Sequence record: PZ445535.1 | Direction: 5' to 3' (one strand) | From: a phage | Length of the DNA: 44,793 nt | In this document: positions 4,456 through 41,186 of the stretch, piece by piece | Numbering within the stretch: the first letter of the stretch is position 1 | Layout of the letters: every line of letters begins with the position of its first letter | The notes under the pieces: generated by a model | Database searches by the model: none | The model's input: the letters and a program-made list of their open reading frames with translations, nothing else | What the model was told of the DNA's origin: nothing | Made by a program: the position numbers and the translations under genes

Positions 4456-5217
4456 TTAGCGCGGAATACCGCAAATCTCGTTTAGTGTTTTCACGTCAAG
4501 CGCTACTGCCGTTGACTTTTTCTCTTCCTGCGGGATGAACTGTTTAACTTCGGGCCATGCCTTAATAAGTTTGGTGTCTGTGGTGTATTTATTCAATGTT
4601 CCCATAACCGACAATTTAAACTCATCATATTTTGCACGTAAAGCCCGGCGTGCTTTGTCGTTCTTATCCAGACGTTTGCAAAACTCATGATCTGCCGGGT
4701 AATCTGCACGACCCCGCGGCATGTAGATCGGCACTTGCTCGCCTTCCTCGTTGAGTTCCACCAGCGCCGCAAGTAGCGCCGTCGCAAACCCCGGTACGAT
4801 TTCGCCAATATCAGGGGCCATCATGTTATTGAATTTATCCTCCCAGTACCCGCGATGGCAACGCCAGCTATAGTTATCGCCACTCAATGACAGTGTGCGA
4901 ATATTCCCGCCCATGTTGACTTCGAACGTTGCGTCATATACAGACCCGATGCCGTGGGGCATGTCTTTGTTATGGCTGAAGGTAGCGCGGCTGGCGTACA
5001 CGCTTATGCTAAACATATTGTTGTATGCGTCTTGAAAGCTGCGCATCATTTTCTGCAAACCGACGAAATTGGTAACACCTTCCGGCATCTGATCCATGGT
5101 GATAGCCATAGCAAGGTCGCGCGATTCGGCCATTATCTTTTTGGCCTGCTTCGTGATTTCGTGGTCGGCCAGGATGTTAGCCAGAATCTGCTTTTTAATG
5201 TCTTTGGTCAGTCTCAT
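4456..5217 (-). CDS. hypothetical protein (reverse-oriented moron in head module)
   Basis: 253 aa (MRLTKD...); RBS GAGGAA 6 nt upstream of ATG at 5217; own sigma70-like promoter; convergent terminator shared with Rz1; no motif recognised. Confidence 0.6.
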   Translation of the reverse strand: MRLTKDIKKQILANILADHEITKQAKKIMAESRDLAMAITMDQMPEGVTNFVGLQKMMRSFQDAYNNMFSISVYASRATFSHNKDMPHGIGSVYDATFEVNMGGNIRTLSLSGDNYSWRCHRGYWEDKFNNMMAPDIGEIVPGFATALLAALVELNEEGEQVPIYMPRGRADYPADHEFCKRLDKNDKARRALRAKYDEFKLSVMGTLNKYTTDTKLIKAWPEVKQFIPQEEKKSTAVALDVKTLNEICGIPR

Positions 5218-5247
5218 CGTCATTTCCTCATTGGTTGGTGTGCAACC

Positions 5248-5276
5248 AATATATTGCAACCAACCCCCGTATGCAA
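5248..5276 (-). promoter_or_regulatory. sigma70-like promoter for moron gene (TTGCAT-N17-TATATT)
   Basis: Minus strand reads TTGCAT acgggggttggttgcaa TATATT ggttgcacacc...GAGGAA; contains ATTGGTTGCA motif. Confidence 0.45.
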
Positions 5277-21363: not shown

Positions 21364-21392
21364 AATATAGTGCAACCAATACGAGATTGCAA
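21364..21392 (-). promoter_or_regulatory. sigma70-like promoter for lipoprotein/RBP cassette (TTGCAA-N17-TATATT)
   Basis: Minus strand: attggTTGCAAtctcgtattggttgcacTATATT; tandem ATTGGTTGCA motifs. Confidence 0.45.
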
Positions 21393-21415
21393 CCAATTAA
21401 TAAGGAGTTTTCGCG

Positions 21416-24554: not shown

Positions 24555-24583
24555 AATATAATTGGTTGCATTATTGGTTGCAA
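24555..24583 (-). promoter_or_regulatory. sigma70-like promoter (TTGCAA-N17-TATATT) with 5' stem-loop
   Basis: Minus strand: cacTTGCAAccaataatgcaaccaatTATATT; GC stem-loop CGGGAGG...CCTCCCG at 24525-24546 at predicted 5' end. Confidence 0.45.
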
Positions 24584-26464: not shown

Positions 26465-26493
26465 AATATAATGCAACCAATCTCGCAATGCAA
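26465..26493 (-). promoter_or_regulatory. sigma70-like promoter (TTGCAT-N17-TATATT)
   Basis: Minus strand: attggTTGCATtgcgagattggttgcatTATATT; tandem motif copies. Confidence 0.45.
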
Positions 26494-26498
26494 CCAAT

Positions 26499-34946: not shown

Positions 34947-35128
34947 TATTCGACCCTCGTAAACTGTACAATTACATATTTTCGAAAACTCTGAACGCCT
35001 GCCTTCTCAATGCGGCGCTTTAATTCTTGTTGTGCGTCGTGCCAGCATTTGGCGGCGTCGGTATTATCGACAATAAAGGATGTATGGTCGTTTGCTTCGT
35101 GGCATGTTGCCAGGACGAAAAATTTCAT
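34946..35128 (-). CDS. hypothetical protein
   Basis: 60 aa from ATG 35128 (MKFFVLATCHE...); RBS GGGAG 9 nt upstream; TAATG overlaps with neighbours. Confidence 0.4.
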   Translation of the reverse strand: MKFFVLATCHEANDHTSFIVDNTDAAKCWHDAQQELKRRIEKAGVQSFRKYVIVQFTRVE

Positions 35129-35379
35129 TATGGTGTCTCCCAACGGTCAATAGTTTTTGCTTCAGACCCCACTGCAAAGCGAACATATTCATGATTCGAG
35201 TCCGCCCATAAATAAAAGTCTGGATTAGCGAAGGTCGTGCGCTTAATTTGTGCCGGTGTTTCTCGCTTCTTACTAATTACGGCAACGCGGGATTGAAAGG
35301 GGCCGGTGCGCTCGAATAGCCAGTAGTACGGGCGCTGGTCGCGCGAGTCTACCGCTTCAATTAACGTGAATCGTGCCAT
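35128..35379 (-). CDS. hypothetical protein
   Basis: 83 aa (MARFTLIEAVD...); follows an intrinsic terminator; weak RBS. Confidence 0.4.
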   Translation of the reverse strand: MARFTLIEAVDSRDQRPYYWLFERTGPFQSRVAVISKKRETPAQIKRTTFANPDFYLWADSNHEYVRFAVGSEAKTIDRWETP

Positions 35380-35391
35380 TGTCTCGTCTCT

Positions 35392-35420
35392 TAAAAAGAG
35401 GCCCGCTATTCTGCGGGCCT
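35392..35420 (-). terminator. intrinsic terminator after small acidic ORF
   Basis: On minus strand AGGCCCGC-AGAATA-GCGGGCCT hairpin followed by CTTTTT. Confidence 0.6.
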
Positions 35421-35553: not shown

Positions 35554-36060
35554 TTAGTCTTCCAGTTCGAAATAGGTTTCGACAATTTCTTTCAGTTCGG
35601 TGTGGAAGTCTTCAACGTCGTCATCTTCCAGCTTAGCCACAGTCTTGATTTCGAACGATTCCAGCAGGTCGTCAAATTCGTCGTTCGCGTCGTCATCGTC
35701 GCCGCCTGCAATGATCGCCGCGTATTGTGCAATTTCATCGCGCATTTCTTTCAGCGGGTCGGCGTCTTTCTTAGCCTTGCCTTTGCCCTTGCCTTTGGCT
35801 GGCTTTTCTTCCGGTTCGTCTTCGTCGTCGTCATCTTCTACGACTTCTTTTTTCGCCTTGCCCTTAGCCGTGGACTTCTTAGCAGGCTTCTTATCTTCCT
35901 GCTCTTCATCTTCGTCTTTGGCTTCTTCTTCTTTCTTAGCCTTAGACGGTTTCTTATCTTCCTGCTTACCAACGGCAGCGCCATGAGTTTCGTAATGTTT
36001 AGCGATGGTTTCCAGTGCTACTACGCCGCGAGTAATCAGATTCAGGATTTGCTCAAACAT
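35554..36060 (-). CDS. highly acidic / Lys-rich low-complexity protein (first early gene)
   Basis: 168 aa from ATG 36060; RBS GGAGA 6 nt upstream; about 45% D/E plus K-rich blocks; first ORF downstream of TTGACA...TATTAT promoter. Confidence 0.55.
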   Translation of the reverse strand: MFEQILNLITRGVVALETIAKHYETHGAAVGKQEDKKPSKAKKEEEAKDEDEEQEDKKPAKKSTAKGKAKKEVVEDDDDEDEPEEKPAKGKGKGKAKKDADPLKEMRDEIAQYAAIIAGGDDDDANDEFDDLLESFEIKTVAKLEDDDVEDFHTELKEIVETYFELED

Positions 36061-36107
36061 GGTATGTCTCCGTTTAGTTAAAAGTGAATGTCGTTTCGAC
36101 GAGGTGA

Positions 36108-36137
36108 ATAATAGATTGGTTGCAGTATGGGTGTCAA
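36108..36137 (-). promoter_or_regulatory. sigma70-like early promoter for minus-strand operon (TTGACA-N18-TATTAT)
   Basis: Minus strand: TTGACAcccatactgcaaccaatcTATTAT; about 40 nt upstream of acidic-protein RBS. Confidence 0.5.
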
Positions 36138-36147
36138 CAACTAATTT

Positions 36148-36184
36148 AAAAAAAAAAATCCCCGAAGCAAAACGCAACGGGGAT
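36148..36184 (-). terminator. intrinsic terminator in divergent promoter region
   Basis: On minus strand TCCCCG-13 nt loop-CGGGGA hairpin followed by a run of 11 T. Confidence 0.6.
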
Positions 36185-36206
36185 AACCATAAGAGACAAT
36201 GAGACT
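36148..36206 (-). ncRNA. candidate short terminated transcript (sRNA-like) between divergent early promoters
   Basis: Predicted start about 7 nt downstream of extended -10 at 36213-36221; canonical hairpin + U11 terminator at 36148-36184; no convincing ORF. Confidence 0.2.
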
Positions 36207-36212
36207 GTTTTT

Positions 36213-36241
36213 ATTATTACACGCGCGCGCGCCCGTTTCAA
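36213..36241 (-). promoter_or_regulatory. candidate promoter with extended -10 (TTGAAA-N17-TGtAATAAT) feeding the terminator at 36148-36184
   Basis: Minus strand: TTGAAAcgggcgcgcgcgcgTGtAATAAT; spacer includes a (CG)5 tract. Confidence 0.3.
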
Positions 36242-36282: not shown

Positions 36283-36313
36283 CTTTGGTCATTAACCAAC
36301 AGGAGGCTGAATT

Positions 36314-36643
36314 ATGAATATCAACGAAGCAATTGAAGTGTTATCTAATGCAATCCGCGGCGAGTCTGGTAAATCCTGGTATTACACAAATGCGGTGGAT
36401 ACTCTGTTATTTGAAGTGTCCAGATTATCGCGTGCCGAGAAAGAGCTTACCGCCAAACTTGAATTGCTGAACGGTACGGCAGCGAGCAAGCTGCAAAAGC
36501 ATAACGAAGAAATGGAAGAATACAAAAAGCAGGTTATCAGACTGCGCGAAGAGGGTAAGTCCTGGGCGATGATTGCCGAGTTAACAGGCATTAACCAGAG
36601 CACGGTGCGATCCTGGGTACGCAATACTAAAACCGCTAAGTAA
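36314..36643 (+). CDS. helix-turn-helix DNA-binding protein (putative regulator)
   Basis: 109 aa; C-terminal HTH-like SWAMIAELTGINQSTVRSWV; RBS AGGAGG; first gene of divergent plus-strand operon. Confidence 0.55.
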   Translation: MNINEAIEVLSNAIRGESGKSWYYTNAVDTLLFEVSRLSRAEKELTAKLELLNGTAASKLQKHNEEMEEYKKQVIRLREEGKSWAMIAELTGINQSTVRSWVRNTKTAK

Positions 36644-36652
36644 GGGATTGAG

Positions 36653-38920
36653 ATGATGAGAAATATAGAATTTGCGATCACACCTCCCGCAAAGAAAGGT
36701 GAATCAGCGGTAGCCCATAACCAATCCATGACTACCGCCGAGTTTTTCGAGTTTATGCTGGATGCGCCGGTGGTGTCGTCAGTTTGCATTAACGGCACTG
36801 AAGATAAGAAAGAATACGCCCGTCGTAAGCGTAAAGGCGACGGTATTGTGGCGACCACCGCCGACGGTACGCGTAAGAAGACCGGCGTTGTTGACCGTTC
36901 GATCCTGTTCTTTGACCTGGACCGCGCCGACAACCGCACACTTACCCGCTGCCGTAGGGCTTTTCGCAAGTCCGGGCTGGAGTATGTCTATCACACCACC
37001 ACCGGCGACCGCCACCCGTTGAAAGACGGCAAACGTTGCGCCCGTTTCCTTGTGCTGACAAACAAACCAGTTCCGGCTGAAGACCTGGGCCGCGCGCAGG
37101 CTGCACTGCTCGAACAACTGGGCCTTACAGACGCGGGCTTTGATGACTGTTCGAAAGACACAAACCGTCTTATGTACTTGCCACACCAGCAGGCTAAGGT
37201 CGAATGCCATGAAGGTAAACGCGCTAACGTGCGTCGTCTGCTTCGCCGGGCTGACCGGATGGGTATTGAGCAGGAGACGTTTCGCCGTGAACTGGCGCAG
37301 GGCGACGACGAGCAGATGAACGGAATCCTCGACTGGTGTTTCCAGGCTGGCTTTGAGCCGTTGCCATCCGGGCGCGGTTATGAAGTGCCGTGCCCGAACG
37401 AACATCTGCACTCTGGCGAAGGGTCAACCGCTATCATGCTTAAGGATGGCGAGATCCGTTTCAAATGTATGCACACCGGCAACGGTTGCTGTTCGGAACT
37501 GAACAAACACCAGCACCTGGCGCTACGCATGATTGGCATCCCGGATATTTATAACGTGGAACCGCACAACATGTCACGCAAACAGATCTCGGCTATCCTG
37601 CCAGGTCTGGACGATGAAGAAGTGGACGCGCAGTATGAGCACATGGTCGATCTGGTAGGTGAGGGTGAGGATTATGCTTCCTGTACCGACGCAGACCTGG
37701 AAGACGAACCGACGGCGCTGTTCTCTAAGCACGACCCGATCATCGAAGGTCTGATTAACTTCAAATCGACCTGGTACGCAGCGGGCGAGTCGAACATTGG
37801 TAAGTCCTTCTTTGTCCTGGGTCAGATGGCTGCCGTTGCCGCTGGCATTCCGTTCGGCGGCGCGAAGGTCGTCCAGTCACATTGCTTCTATTTCGATGCG
37901 GAAGGTGGCGAGGCGTCACACCAGCGTAAAGAGGCACTGCAGATTAAATATGAGCACGACCTGGATAAGCTGCACATTATCGACCTTCAGGCCCGCGGCT
38001 GGGATATTACGAGCAAATCCGGCCTGCGTGAAGTCATCAGCTTTATCAACCGCACCGCGGATGGTGAACCGGTCGGCCTGGTGGCATTCGACTCCCTTAA
38101 CCAGACAGTGGCCCTGCGATCTGCTGACGCCAAACCGTTCGATGAGAACAACGCAAGCGATATGGGTGAGATTGTCAAAGCGCTGAAGGCCATTGCGGAA
38201 AACACAGGCGGCAGTGCGGGCGTCATCCACCACCCGGCTAAGGGTGCAAACGGCAGCAGATCCCCGCGGGGGTCCGGTGCGCTACATGGCGCGGTGGATT
38301 CTGCATTCTTCCTGGAACAGCCAGACGAGAATCAGCCGGGCCAGCTAAACCTGTACCACGAAAAAGCACGTAACGGCGTCAAACAGGGTCCGCGCGGCTT
38401 CGTGCTACTGAAGTGCAAAGTATCCATTAACGAGCGCAAGTCTGACTCGTTCGAAGCGCACCAGTCCACTAACCCCGGACCGGACTTCGGCGATGTAGTT
38501 GCCGGATGGGACGTCAAGCCAATCCAGGCCACGCCGCGCGACGAGACTCTGTACCTCGTACCGGTAGCGCTGACCCCGTTCGCTATTGAACAGGCTAAGG
38601 CGGCAGGCAAGCAGGCTGTTAAGGATGAGAACACCGCAGGCCCGCGCAATGAAAAAGAGAAAGTGCTGTACGCAGCGCTCGAAGCGTTGATGGAAGAGAA
38701 TCCGGGCCACCACGGCTTCAGCAAATCGGCAATCGTCCGCAAAGCTGGGCTGGCGAAAGGCGGCACTTCGACGAAGCCAATCGACGATATGCGCGAGCGC
38801 GGAATCATCGGCTTTTACAAAGACCCGGACACCGGGGCCATTTACGGGTCGTCGAATCTGGTTATCAATTCACAAATATCTATGCAATTGACGGCGACGG
38901 ACGACGACCTTAAAGATTAA
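36653..38920 (+). CDS. DNA primase-helicase (AEP-like N-terminal domain, zinc motif, RecA-fold ATPase)
   Basis: 755 aa; N-terminal FFDLDRAD / HTTTGDRHPL acidic motifs; Cys/His cluster CPNEHLH...CMHTGNGCC; Walker A AGESNIGKS and Walker B LVAFDSL. Confidence 0.65.
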   Translation: MMRNIEFAITPPAKKGESAVAHNQSMTTAEFFEFMLDAPVVSSVCINGTEDKKEYARRKRKGDGIVATTADGTRKKTGVVDRSILFFDLDRADNRTLTRCRRAFRKSGLEYVYHTTTGDRHPLKDGKRCARFLVLTNKPVPAEDLGRAQAALLEQLGLTDAGFDDCSKDTNRLMYLPHQQAKVECHEGKRANVRRLLRRADRMGIEQETFRRELAQGDDEQMNGILDWCFQAGFEPLPSGRGYEVPCPNEHLHSGEGSTAIMLKDGEIRFKCMHTGNGCCSELNKHQHLALRMIGIPDIYNVEPHNMSRKQISAILPGLDDEEVDAQYEHMVDLVGEGEDYASCTDADLEDEPTALFSKHDPIIEGLINFKSTWYAAGESNIGKSFFVLGQMAAVAAGIPFGGAKVVQSHCFYFDAEGGEASHQRKEALQIKYEHDLDKLHIIDLQARGWDITSKSGLREVISFINRTADGEPVGLVAFDSLNQTVALRSADAKPFDENNASDMGEIVKALKAIAENTGGSAGVIHHPAKGANGSRSPRGSGALHGAVDSAFFLEQPDENQPGQLNLYHEKARNGVKQGPRGFVLLKCKVSINERKSDSFEAHQSTNPGPDFGDVVAGWDVKPIQATPRDETLYLVPVALTPFAIEQAKAAGKQAVKDENTAGPRNEKEKVLYAALEALMEENPGHHGFSKSAIVRKAGLAKGGTSTKPIDDMRERGIIGFYKDPDTGAIYGSSNLVINSQISMQLTATDDDLKD

Positions 38921-39240: not shown

Positions 39241-39396
39241 AAAATCTCTGGTTGCATAATCAACGGCAGCATAGTGAAAATTGCGGCGGGGGTAGATCTC
39301 GGCAACCAATGCATGTTGGATAATGGAGAGTGAAAAATGCAGTTTGCAATTGCAACTCATAGCGATCAGCATTTCCATGCGCGTGATTGATATTGG

Positions 39397-39425
39397 TTGC
39401 ATTCAGCCTGGCACCTTGCTATATT
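39397..39425 (+). promoter_or_regulatory. sigma70-like promoter (TTGCAT-N17-TATATT) for early genes at 39454+
   Basis: attggTTGCATtcagcctggcaccttgcTATATTggttgcacaccaac; shares a 20-nt block with the promoter at 5248-5276. Confidence 0.5.
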
Positions 39426-39453
39426 GGTTGCACACCAACATGAGGACTGAACG

Positions 39454-39759
39454 ATGAGAGCATTAATCTGGAGTTACACATCAGCGGTCGCAGCGCTCTA
39501 TGAAGCGAAGCACACAAACGGCAACGCCGACCACGCACGCCAGGCTGTCATGTTCGCGCAGCAGGCAATCTTTGCAGCGTTCGACAACATGGACGCCAGC
39601 CTGGATGAACTGGAACCATTGCGTGTGGCAATCTGCGAGTATGCGATGAAATTCGCCCGTGAGCGTCTTGCTTACCGGTTTGGCATCGGCGAAACGGCGA
39701 CGGCTAACATCGCCCGCATTCAGGCCCAGCGTGAGCTACACGCCTTACTTGCGAAATAA
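39454..39759 (+). CDS. hypothetical early protein
   Basis: 101 aa; RBS GAGGA; first gene after promoter TTGCAT-N17-TATATT. Confidence 0.5.
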   Translation: MRALIWSYTSAVAALYEAKHTNGNADHARQAVMFAQQAIFAAFDNMDASLDELEPLRVAICEYAMKFARERLAYRFGIGETATANIARIQAQRELHALLAK

Positions 39760-40860: not shown

Positions 40861-41132
40861 TATTTTGGTTTGGTTTATTCTGCGCAATCTTGCTGGTTGG
40901 CGCTGTTACTCTGGTGATTGCAGTCTGGTTTATATGGCCTGCCGTCGAGGCTGTGAGCATTACGCGCATGACCTTTGCCTACTATAAAAAACAAGGAATC
41001 ACGGAACACTCCAGTCGGCTTAAGGTGTGGTGGCTGTGGTATCGAGATATGCTAGGAGGAAGGCGATTTGAAGCAATGCGGTCGCACGGCTGGGAGTGGA
41101 AAGGCGTAGGACGCTGGTCAATTTCAGAATAA
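40845..41132 (+). CDS. membrane protein
   Basis: 95 aa; two hydrophobic segments (FWFGLFCAILLVGAVTLVIAVWFIW); RBS GGAGAG 9 nt upstream; intrinsic terminator follows. Confidence 0.5.
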   Translation: MLYDVIFWFGLFCAILLVGAVTLVIAVWFIWPAVEAVSITRMTFAYYKKQGITEHSSRLKVWWLWYRDMLGGRRFEAMRSHGWEWKGVGRWSISE

Positions 41133-41151
41133 TTATGCAGTCGTGATATAG

Positions 41152-41186
41152 TCCCCAGTGAGGTTTAATCTTACTGGGGCTTTTTT
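41152..41186 (+). terminator. intrinsic terminator before holin gene
   Basis: CCCCAGTGAGG-TTTAAT-CTTACTGGGG hairpin followed by TTTTTT, then ATG of holin. Confidence 0.6.

Follow-up and report, generated by a model that had tools for sequence, protein, structure and literature searches.

Does the promoter–terminator pair at positions 36,148 to 36,241 of sequence record PZ445535.1 give rise to an RNA with a role of its own, and on what would such an RNA act? The record, whose full length of 44,793 nt is called the window here, belongs to a Dhillonvirus, i.e. an HK578-like virulent siphovirus of E. coli. The small-RNA locus sits in a 254-bp control region separating two early operons. This region matches 138-155 records of the genus and is closest to phage Ioannina (95% identity). 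In an earlier note on the sequence, a short terminated transcript had been proposed at this place, which could be a small regulatory RNA (sRNA), an insulating promoter–terminator pair or a regulatory leader. The results presented below indicate that the unit is very probably a real small-RNA gene, independently transcribed and terminated. The evidence also tilts, with less assurance, towards an antisense sRNA that acts in trans to repress the translation of the phage's own early and replication genes.

The promoter of the unit, termed P1, was found on the minus strand at 36213-36241, exactly as the earlier note had described it. It consists of the −35 hexamer TTGAAA (36241-36236), a 17-nt spacer (36235-36219), which holds the alternating CG tract GCGCGCGCGCG, and the extended −10 element TGtAATAAT (36221-36213). 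In a consensus scan, P1 reached 10 of 12 matches to the sigma70 consensus in addition to the upstream TG. Sites of comparable quality (10/12, or 9/12 with TG) number only seven on both strands of the 44.8-kb window, and two of these lie in the intergenic region in question. Transcription is predicted to start at A36206, which is the canonical position, the seventh nucleotide past the −10 element. The predicted start is followed by 22 nt without structure and then by an intrinsic terminator (36148-36184, minus strand), also recognized previously, in which the stem AUCCCCG/CGGGGAU (36184-36178 with 36164-36158) precedes a run of U11. The stem comprises 7 bp, including five G-C pairs, and its 13-nt loop contains an inner 2-bp GC/GC helix; the consensus scan missed this terminator only because the loop is longer than its 8-nt limit. 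The T11 tract (36158-36148) is the longest T run in the window. Counted from the canonical start to the end of the U run, the predicted small RNA (36148-36206, minus strand) is about 57-59 nt long, in agreement with the 55-60 nt estimated before. For the 59-nt RNA a folding energy of −16.0 kcal/mol (z = −4.5) was computed, which none of 200 shuffled sequences equalled. Since only seven sites in the window have such promoter quality, the T run is the longest one present and the fold is far better than that of shuffled sequences, the promoter–terminator pair is unlikely to be due to chance.

The possibility that the RNA encodes a peptide was considered and rejected. An ATG within the RNA opens a 14-codon frame (MVIPVAFCFGDFFF, then stop), which exists in the window clade alone, the relatives having UAUUGG instead. 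No conserved open reading frame (ORF) was found in the small RNA on either strand among 18 aligned relatives and the divergent lineages described below, which bears out the earlier statement that the transcript contains no credible one. A 26-codon frame on the opposite strand was likewise discarded; it overlaps the promoters, and its protein is not conserved between lineages. Sigma-dependent pausing, or antitermination of the Q type, was rejected as well, as the −10-like TATGGT in the transcript is not retained in relatives (TATTGG).

All 155 related phage records contain the unit, with an intergenic region of 80-99% identity. The 18 relatives used for alignment were collected through the neighbouring helix-turn-helix (HTH) protein, not through the small-RNA element itself. 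This protein (109 aa, 36314-36643, plus strand; Sigma70_r4_2/HTH_23) belongs to the rightward operon and is only about 75% identical among them, while P1, the block GTCTCATTGTCTC, the T run and the leftward promoter P2 are nearly invariant. The transcribed block reads GTCTCATTGTCTCTTAT(T)GGTTA with almost no variation. The bases separating it from the −10 element, on the other hand, vary freely (AAAAACA, AATTCCC, ACTCCC). Within the main genus the terminator stem occurs as TCCCCG/CGGGGA or as GCGCCG/CGGCGC, which corresponds to two compensatory pairs.

Divergent contigs, found by partial similarity of the HTH protein, were grouped as lineages B (L018, L031, L039), C (L029, L030, L037, L038, L114-116), D (L032, L035) and E (L033, L034). 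In all four of them the unit survives with altered promoter hexamers, RNA body and terminator stem. The P1 equivalents of B-E stand in the same place and read TTGCGC-17-TATTAT, TTGTAC-17-TAAGAT, TTGCGC-18-TATAAT and TTGTGC-18-TATTAT. In all six lineages the block (G)UCUCAUUGUC starts exactly 7 nt past the −10 hexamer; its form in B-E is (G/C/U)(U)CUCAUUG(U/C)(C/U). The RNA bodies of B-E are unrelated and often contain a small hairpin with compensatory changes (GCC/GGC vs ACC/GGU), followed by CUCCUGAA. Six unrelated GC-rich terminator stems occur across the lineages, each of them followed by U8-14 and then by P2. This pattern indicates that what selection maintains is a promoter, efficient termination and, between the two, a short RNA with a defined 5' end, and not the DNA sequence as such. 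Scans of metagenomes and IMG/VR with the HTH alignment, aimed at further lineages, returned only the main genus and lineage B, and a search with a degenerate DNA pattern of the Nmad5 gene, discussed below, returned unrelated contigs only.

Two further features of P1 were noted in these comparisons. An alternating CG or purine–pyrimidine tract, which is prone to form Z-DNA, lies in or beside the P1 spacer of every lineage despite the differing hexamers (36219-36235, minus strand, in the window; L018, L030, L032, L033). The rightward promoter reads TTGCAC-N17-TATATT in lineages B-E and overlaps there with P1, which is on the other strand; use of the two would thus be mutually exclusive.

The position of the unit could also be explained without any trans-acting RNA. 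The earlier note had placed the unit between the divergent early promoters, and this is correct; it has to be added that P1 stands back to back with one of them, the two −35 elements being separated by 12 bp. This rightward promoter of the HTH and primase-helicase operon (36254-36259/36277-36282, plus strand; TTGACA-N17-TAGTTT) is annotated in HK578, and its transcript is predicted to start near 36290. On the other side, P2, the promoter of the leftward early operon (36108-36137, minus strand; TTGACA-N18-TATTAT with TGCAACCAA in the spacer), has 11 of 12 consensus matches and is also annotated in HK578. It lies outside the small RNA, directly downstream of its terminator, with a gap of 10 nt between the T run and the P2 −35 element (36137). 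The unit might thus be a structural transcription device, in which P1 loads polymerase or drives supercoiling by the rightward promoter, the terminator insulates P2 and the T tract serves P2 as an UP element. The back-to-back arrangement, which becomes an overlap in B-E, and the constant location of the terminator directly upstream of P2 are in line with this. T11 and AAATTAG, moreover, occupy about −57 to −40 of P2, which, judging by the UP consensus, is presumably the position of an UP element. Terminators coupled to downstream promoters are reportedly common in bacteria (bioRxiv 10.64898/2026.08.19.745784). In promoter-coupled terminators, however, the stem and T tract form part of the −35 element and spacer of the downstream promoter, and in the design of the preprint by Fletcher et al. 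(2026) the −10 element comes immediately behind the T tract (bioRxiv 10.64898/2026.08.19.745784), whereas here the T run ends 10 nt before the P2 −35 element. The distance from the T run to the P2 −35 element is 12-35 nt in the other lineages, so that it ranges from about 10 to about 35 nt overall and an UP-element role is not conserved. A structural device also leaves unexplained that conservation is highest over the first 10-14 transcribed bases, that the 7-nt register is fixed and that the block covaries with start-codon regions, as shown below. As a full account of the locus it is therefore rather unlikely, but such a role can coexist with an sRNA function, and the insulator proposed in the earlier note may hold as a second function alongside the sRNA.

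A leader or attenuator, the remaining option of the earlier note, did not withstand the comparison. According to this explanation, some condition would let transcripts from P1 continue past the terminator and contribute to transcription from P2, and the shared strand and direction of the unit and the leftward operon would suit it. Neither a leader peptide nor an antiterminator fold was found, and the minimum-energy and centroid folds show the terminator alone, with no alternative structure. The terminators have 8-14 U, and a strong promoter with 11 of 12 matches follows within 11 nt, so that the leftward operon has its own start directly after the unit. This explanation can hardly be given credence.

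The conservation of the 5' end, rather than of the transcript as a whole, directed attention to antisense pairing. The first ~14 nt of the predicted RNA, GUCUCAUUGUCUC, are predicted to be unpaired. Within them the seed GUCUCAUUGUCUCU (36192-36205, minus strand) is predicted to be single-stranded and contains the CAU (36201-36199) that would pair with the AUG of the targets. The mean unpaired probability of the seed, i.e. its predicted accessibility, is 0.69-0.94. As the conserved block stands at the very start of the predicted RNA and is free of predicted pairing, complementary sites were sought. The small RNA (36206-36148) overlaps no gene on the opposite strand and thus differs from cis-antisense RNAs of the OOP or CopA type.

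The most consistent target proposed from these comparisons is the replicative primase-helicase (755 aa, 36653-38920, plus strand; PF13481, AAA_25, phrog_3228), which is encoded in the rightward operon. The seed of each lineage was compared with the start of this gene, about 450 nt away in the same locus. In the window, the proposed site GAGAUGAUGAGA (36650-36661, plus strand) spans the start codon or codons of the gene and pairs with nt 3-14 of the RNA over 12 bp, including two G-U pairs. The A1 variants, GAGACAAUGAGA in Ioannina with 12 perfect pairs, GAGACGAUGAGA and the GAGAUGAUGAGA of the window, all form 12 pairs and differ only by G-U. Most of A2 have GGCAAUGAG (9 pairs), B has GACAAUGAGCA (10-11 pairs), C has GACAAUGGG (9 pairs) and E has AGGCAAUGAG (10 pairs). 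In lineage D, L032 combines the site AGCAAUGAAC with the seed GUUCAUUGCU (10 pairs), and L035 combines AAGCAAUGAGA with UCUCAUUGCUU (11 pairs). Between these two D phages, nt 1-2 of the seed are GU in one and UC in the other, and the targets change in step (AUGAAC vs AUGAGA); codon 2 of the primase-helicase is also altered by this, from Asn to Arg. The two further seed positions at which D departs from all other lineages are again matched in the target (UUGCU with AGCAA, against UUGUC with GACAA). Local scans over 2-3.8 kb of both strands ranked the primase-helicase start first among the non-self sites in A1, B and D, and second in C and E.

Covariation was counted on 20 distinct seed–target combinations over a 10-bp core. 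This core was paired in 93% of cells, and four of its pairs showed double changes, found in nine cells. The covariation score of 0.195 (0.144 in shuffles) was reached by none of 500 shuffles, and only 30-55% of cells were paired when the register was slid by 1-3 nt. In the nine inner pairs, 12 wobble cells were observed versus 4 unpaired ones; the variation of the helix is thus mostly G-U compatible, which fits RNA pairing better than a repeated DNA site.

A repeated DNA site is the reading with which this last result has to be compared. The conserved block may be a double-stranded site, an operator or an origin repeat, that is present at P1 and at gene starts and is bound by a phage protein such as the HTH protein or the primase-helicase. 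The block can indeed be read as a short tandem repeat, GTCTCATT-GTCTC, with 2.6 copies in lineage E, complementarity on DNA is the same thing as repeat identity, and the phage does use dispersed DNA motifs such as TTGGTTGCA. The other copies are, however, centred on ATG with the CAU in register, which suits ribosome occlusion and not DNA binding, and the differences between copies mostly preserve G-U pairs. A repeat of 10-12 bp is, in addition, too short to be homogenized through recombination. A DNA site is consequently considered improbable. The sRNA option of the earlier note is favoured by the retained promoter, the 7-nt register, the terminator, the lack of a conserved ORF and the covariation of the 5' block.

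The primase-helicase is not the only gene whose start is complementary to the seed. In the leftward operon, the gene of an 83-aa early protein (35128-35379, minus strand; phrog_4965), which comes after the first leftward terminator, has the proposed site CGAGACAAUGGCACG (35372-35386, minus strand) at its start, with a helix of 9-10 bp in six of six complete genomes. Its start is the best or second-best local match of the seed in the main clade. In all A genomes the gene starts with GAGACAAUG, which would pair with the seed CAUUGUCUC, and in lineage C the start CGACAAUG and the seed CAUUGUCG represent a second, independent compensatory case.

A third candidate is the initiation region of the Nmad5 gene (4456-5217, minus strand; PF18757). 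The proposed site (5210-5237, minus strand) consists of GACGAUGAGACU over the AUG and AACCAAUGAGG over the Shine-Dalgarno sequence. This start is the best of 66 predicted initiation regions in the window (−25.7 kcal/mol; the next reaches −18.5), and none of 500 shuffled seeds attained −25.7 kcal/mol on any initiation region. It was also the best non-self match in the window when the 23-nt 5' region was used in a genome-wide duplex scan, and the 7-mer ATGAGAC was found only there and at the small-RNA locus. In relatives the site shrinks to an 8-bp match, with AAUGAGAC retained in the main clade. The Nmad5 site by itself would not convince. The seed of lineage B is GCUCAUUGUCU. Apart from its own locus, the three sites that it matches best in the available 5 kb all lie at start codons: that of the primase-helicase, with GACAAUGAGC (10 perfect pairs), that of the gene which opens the Nmad5 operon, with AGACAAUGAGU (11 pairs), and that of Nmad5, with AAUGAGC, which would pair with the seed GCUCAUU. 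A possible minor target is ACGAUGAGA (39451-39459, plus strand) at the start of a 101-aa gene (39454-39759, plus strand; phrog_9839), with a 9-bp helix in four of six genomes; taken alone, this site is weak. Pairing of the second half of the RNA with the ribosome-binding site of the HTH gene, UAACCAACAGGAG, was seen by eye and rejected, as this site is not among the top initiation regions and is not conserved elsewhere.

Several results weigh against antisense control of phage genes. The seed is U/C-rich with a CAU and thus pairs easily with purine-rich initiation regions. With the CAU anchored on AUG and shuffled flanks as the control, genes that form helices of 8 bp or more were not clearly more numerous than expected by chance (P 0.03-0.3). 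The more robust measure of covariation, which counts the pairs with double changes, gave four versus 2.1 in shuffles, and 6 of 500 shuffles reached this value, which is borderline; the helix was, moreover, defined after the data had been seen, and the lineages are few and related by descent. The cross-lineage energy matrix is diagonal only for D and A1. In the main clade generally, the primase-helicase is not among the top local matches, the 83-aa gene being better, and the L007-like phages, which are part of this clade, pair over only 5+3 bp at the primase-helicase site. The main-clade ranking and the weak L007-like site imply that the set of targets differs by lineage. The Nmad5 start was not among the best genome-wide matches in five complete relatives when duplexes rich in G-U were allowed; since G-U-rich coding sites score equally there, whole-genome energy ranking is uninformative for a U/C-rich seed. 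No transcriptome of any Dhillonvirus was found in the literature. Given a helix chosen post hoc, related sequences and a weak enrichment test, the support lent by covariation with the targets is rated as moderate. The primase-helicase is accordingly proposed as the most consistent target, with the 83-aa early protein and the Nmad5 operon as further ones, in a set that varies with the lineage.

The weakness of the anchored test on phage genes could also mean that the RNA is a real sRNA whose relevant targets are host mRNAs or host sRNAs, or that it titrates Hfq, in which case the complementarity to phage start codons would be incidental. A long U tail and a U-rich stretch preceding the hairpin are typical of Hfq-dependent sRNAs. 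The U8-14 tail and UCUUAUGGUUA before the hairpin are both present in the Dhillonvirus RNA, which together with its 5' seed gives it the layout of enterobacterial Hfq-type sRNAs; these features are not specific to Hfq-dependent sRNAs. Two phage sRNAs, PreS/LPR1 of lambda and VpdS of VP882 (~50 nt), act by base pairing and support the phage cycle (PMC12197685; bioRxiv 10.1101/2024.10.31.621285). Both come from temperate phages, their Hfq binding was experimentally shown, and they act mainly on host genes (dnaN, host sRNAs) (PMC12197685; bioRxiv 10.1101/2024.10.31.621285). The Dhillonvirus RNA resembles them in being a short phage transcript with base pairing, here predicted from sequence, but it belongs to a virulent phage, has no sequence similarity to them and has the phage's own early genes as proposed targets. 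Changes of the seed between lineages are matched in these phage targets, which a host target could not have followed. An exclusively host-directed RNA is therefore unlikely, yet host targets may exist in addition to phage targets.

A further alternative, that of a primer or R-loop transcript which opens or primes a replication origin, relates to the neighbourhood of the unit. The locus adjoins replication genes, an A/T tract follows the hairpin, and the GC-skew minimum falls at 34.5-36.5 kb; the origins of T4 and T7 use promoters as sources of primers or R-loops. An efficient terminator would, however, release the RNA, the covariation with start codons would remain unexplained, and the skew minimum coincides with a switch of gene orientation and is uninformative. 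A primer function is thus very improbable. In the cumulative GC skew of the window the maximum near 23-24 kb is a gene-orientation switch as well and, as both extremes coincide with such switches, they do not by themselves locate the origin.

Antisense repression of phage genes, the favoured reading, would operate as follows. Upon DNA entry, host sigma70 RNA polymerase would start at P1, which adjoins the HTH and primase-helicase promoter in back-to-back orientation. P1 has no copy of the dispersed motif TTGGTTGCA that marks P2 and many other phage promoters, which suggests a plain host-polymerase promoter, active from entry like its divergent partner. The intrinsic terminator would stop transcription and yield an RNA of ~57 nt with an unpaired 5' end of ~14 nt, which would accumulate together with the HTH and primase-helicase mRNA. 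The 5' seed would pair in trans with initiation regions of phage early mRNAs, the CAU lying on the AUG, UUGUCUC on the bases just upstream and GUCU on codon 2. Such pairing would span ~6 nt upstream and 3-5 nt downstream of the start codon, well within the 30S footprint. The 30S binding site would then be occluded and less protein would be translated. For enterobacterial sRNAs that pair at the start codon, translational repression, often followed by mRNA decay, is the expected result. Production of the RNA, its pairing in the cell, repression rather than activation or mRNA decay, and any role of Hfq are what we infer from the sequence.

Among known systems, such a mechanism has its nearest counterparts in plasmids. 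In R1 (CopA/CopT) and in IncI-alpha and ColE2 (RNAI), a small, constitutive, terminated RNA lowers translation of the adjacent replication protein gene. These plasmid antisense RNAs are cis-encoded, fully complementary and engage in loop–loop kissing, whereas the Dhillonvirus RNA lies ~450 nt off its target on the other strand and has a linear 5' seed of 9-12 nt. By analogy, it appears to resemble such throttles of plasmid replication initiators more than the host-directed sRNAs of lambda and VP882. The c4 RNA of P1 and P7 is likewise encoded by a phage and uses short segments to pair with the region around the ribosome-binding site of a phage gene, and RNA and target covary between related phages; it is processed from the operon transcript of its target and serves lysogenic immunity, whereas the Dhillonvirus RNA belongs to a virulent phage and is flanked by a promoter and a terminator of its own. 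RybB and OmrA/B share the same layout, with an unpaired 5'-terminal seed, a terminator with a long U tail and several targets close to start codons; the Dhillonvirus RNA is shorter, has no homology to them and lacks an internal hairpin in the main clade. The lambda OOP and 6S (pR'-tR') RNAs are short terminated phage transcripts from constitutive promoters, OOP being cis-antisense to cII and 6S arising from the late promoter as an unmodified product until Q antitermination sets in. Neither the cis-antisense feature of OOP nor the late-promoter feature of 6S applies to the Dhillonvirus RNA. Short terminated lambda transcripts comparable to it have been described (PMC12197685).

In Rfam 15, no family was found at the gathering threshold; the best scores were those of PyrR (20.5, with a threshold of 54), anti-hemB (18, 49.5) and AgvB (16.2, 56), and none was found in relatives. 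The small RNA had no match in 5,426 E. coli genomes. Earlier annotations, made by prediction, cover only pieces of the locus, namely three promoters in the HK578 record JQ086375 and the terminator in WF5505 and CS16 (MK373790, LR999870). No description of P1 and the terminator as one RNA gene was found in the records, in Rfam or in the searchable literature.

In some deposited genomes, doubtful ORFs are annotated across the control region. In OQ589852 (Ioannina, L002 1155-1889), the start of the acidic 168-aa protein, the first gene of the leftward operon (ATG at 36060, minus strand, in the window), is over-extended across the control region and hides the promoters and the small RNA, and in PQ850611 (Bas84, L003 1887-2045) a doubtful 52-aa ORF covers the same region with the same effect. 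In many relatives, P2 and the acidic-protein gene are set further apart by an additional 150-190 bp (Bas84, L003 1838-2059; L032 480-700), which CGTCGAC(A) repeats flank and which is annotated in Bas84 as a 52-aa hypothetical protein. This insertion is absent from the window (corresponding site ~36085-36100), and its 160 nt downstream of P2 showed no unusual structure (z −0.5) and no Rfam match. Within the leftward operon, a strong intrinsic terminator at 35399-35420 (minus strand; AGGCCCGC..GCGGGCCT and a T run), annotated in WF5505 at −17.2, stands between the acidic-protein gene and the 83-aa gene that is complementary to the small RNA. A second promoter-like site followed by a hairpin was seen at 41123-41186 (plus strand), where TTCAGA-N18-TATAGT with an upstream TG precedes a 12-bp hairpin and T6; this hairpin starts right behind the −10 element, and a transcript from the promoter would lack part of the stem.

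The Nmad5 gene stands alone on the minus strand within the plus-strand structural block and has its own promoter. Its codon 2 is the rare AGA in every Dhillonvirus examined, while codon 4 uses all four synonymous bases. Two operons, that of Nmad5 and that of the 101-aa gene of unknown function, have a near-identical promoter–leader cassette in common (5210-5252, minus strand, and 39418-39462, plus strand), which reads TATATTGGTTGCACACCAAC(C)A(A)UGAGGA....ACGATGAGA and extends into the start codon.

The 9-mer TTGGTTGCA occurs in 15 exact copies in the window, where ~0.3 would be expected, and in 29 copies with at most one mismatch (12.4 in shuffles). Its sites are 5241-5263 (minus), 11194 (plus), 21371-21396 (minus), 24562-24582 (plus), 26472-26497 (minus), 36116-36124 (plus), 39393-39432 (plus), 39956 (minus) and 42687 (minus). 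Often two copies stand in tandem at a distance of 12-17 nt, directly preceding a −10-like hexamer (TATATT) at the head of an operon. One inverted copy lies in the P2 spacer, and none is found in P1 or in the rightward promoter. The motif looks like a phage-specific promoter or operator family and is possibly the binding site of the HTH protein.

To our knowledge, almost all phage sRNAs with a known regulatory role come from temperate phages and prophages, and most of them act on host genes. Phage-encoded base-pairing sRNAs as such are known (PMC12197685); what is new is this family, its occurrence in a virulent coliphage genus and the proposed action on the phage's own replication gene. In a tentative extension, which is rather doubtful at present, a virulent phage would run its replication and early programme by a plasmid-like antisense circuit, in which translation of the primase-helicase and of further early genes would be subject to a threshold set by an immediate-early sRNA. 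The seed–target types A-E would co-evolve and could act between co-infecting relatives as an RNA-based determinant of exclusion or incompatibility.

If antisense control of phage genes is true, the Dhillonvirus RNA would be a clear case of an sRNA in a common and easily grown genus of virulent coliphages, which includes members of the BASEL collection and the widely used SECphi18. It would offer a defined seed, named phage targets including the primase-helicase, and natural seed and target variants suited to compensatory mutation. The locus is also relevant to phage engineering, as this 250-bp control region is often taken as empty intergenic DNA or lies under spurious ORFs. With the small RNA, finally, the early programme of virulent siphoviruses would gain a level of post-transcriptional control.

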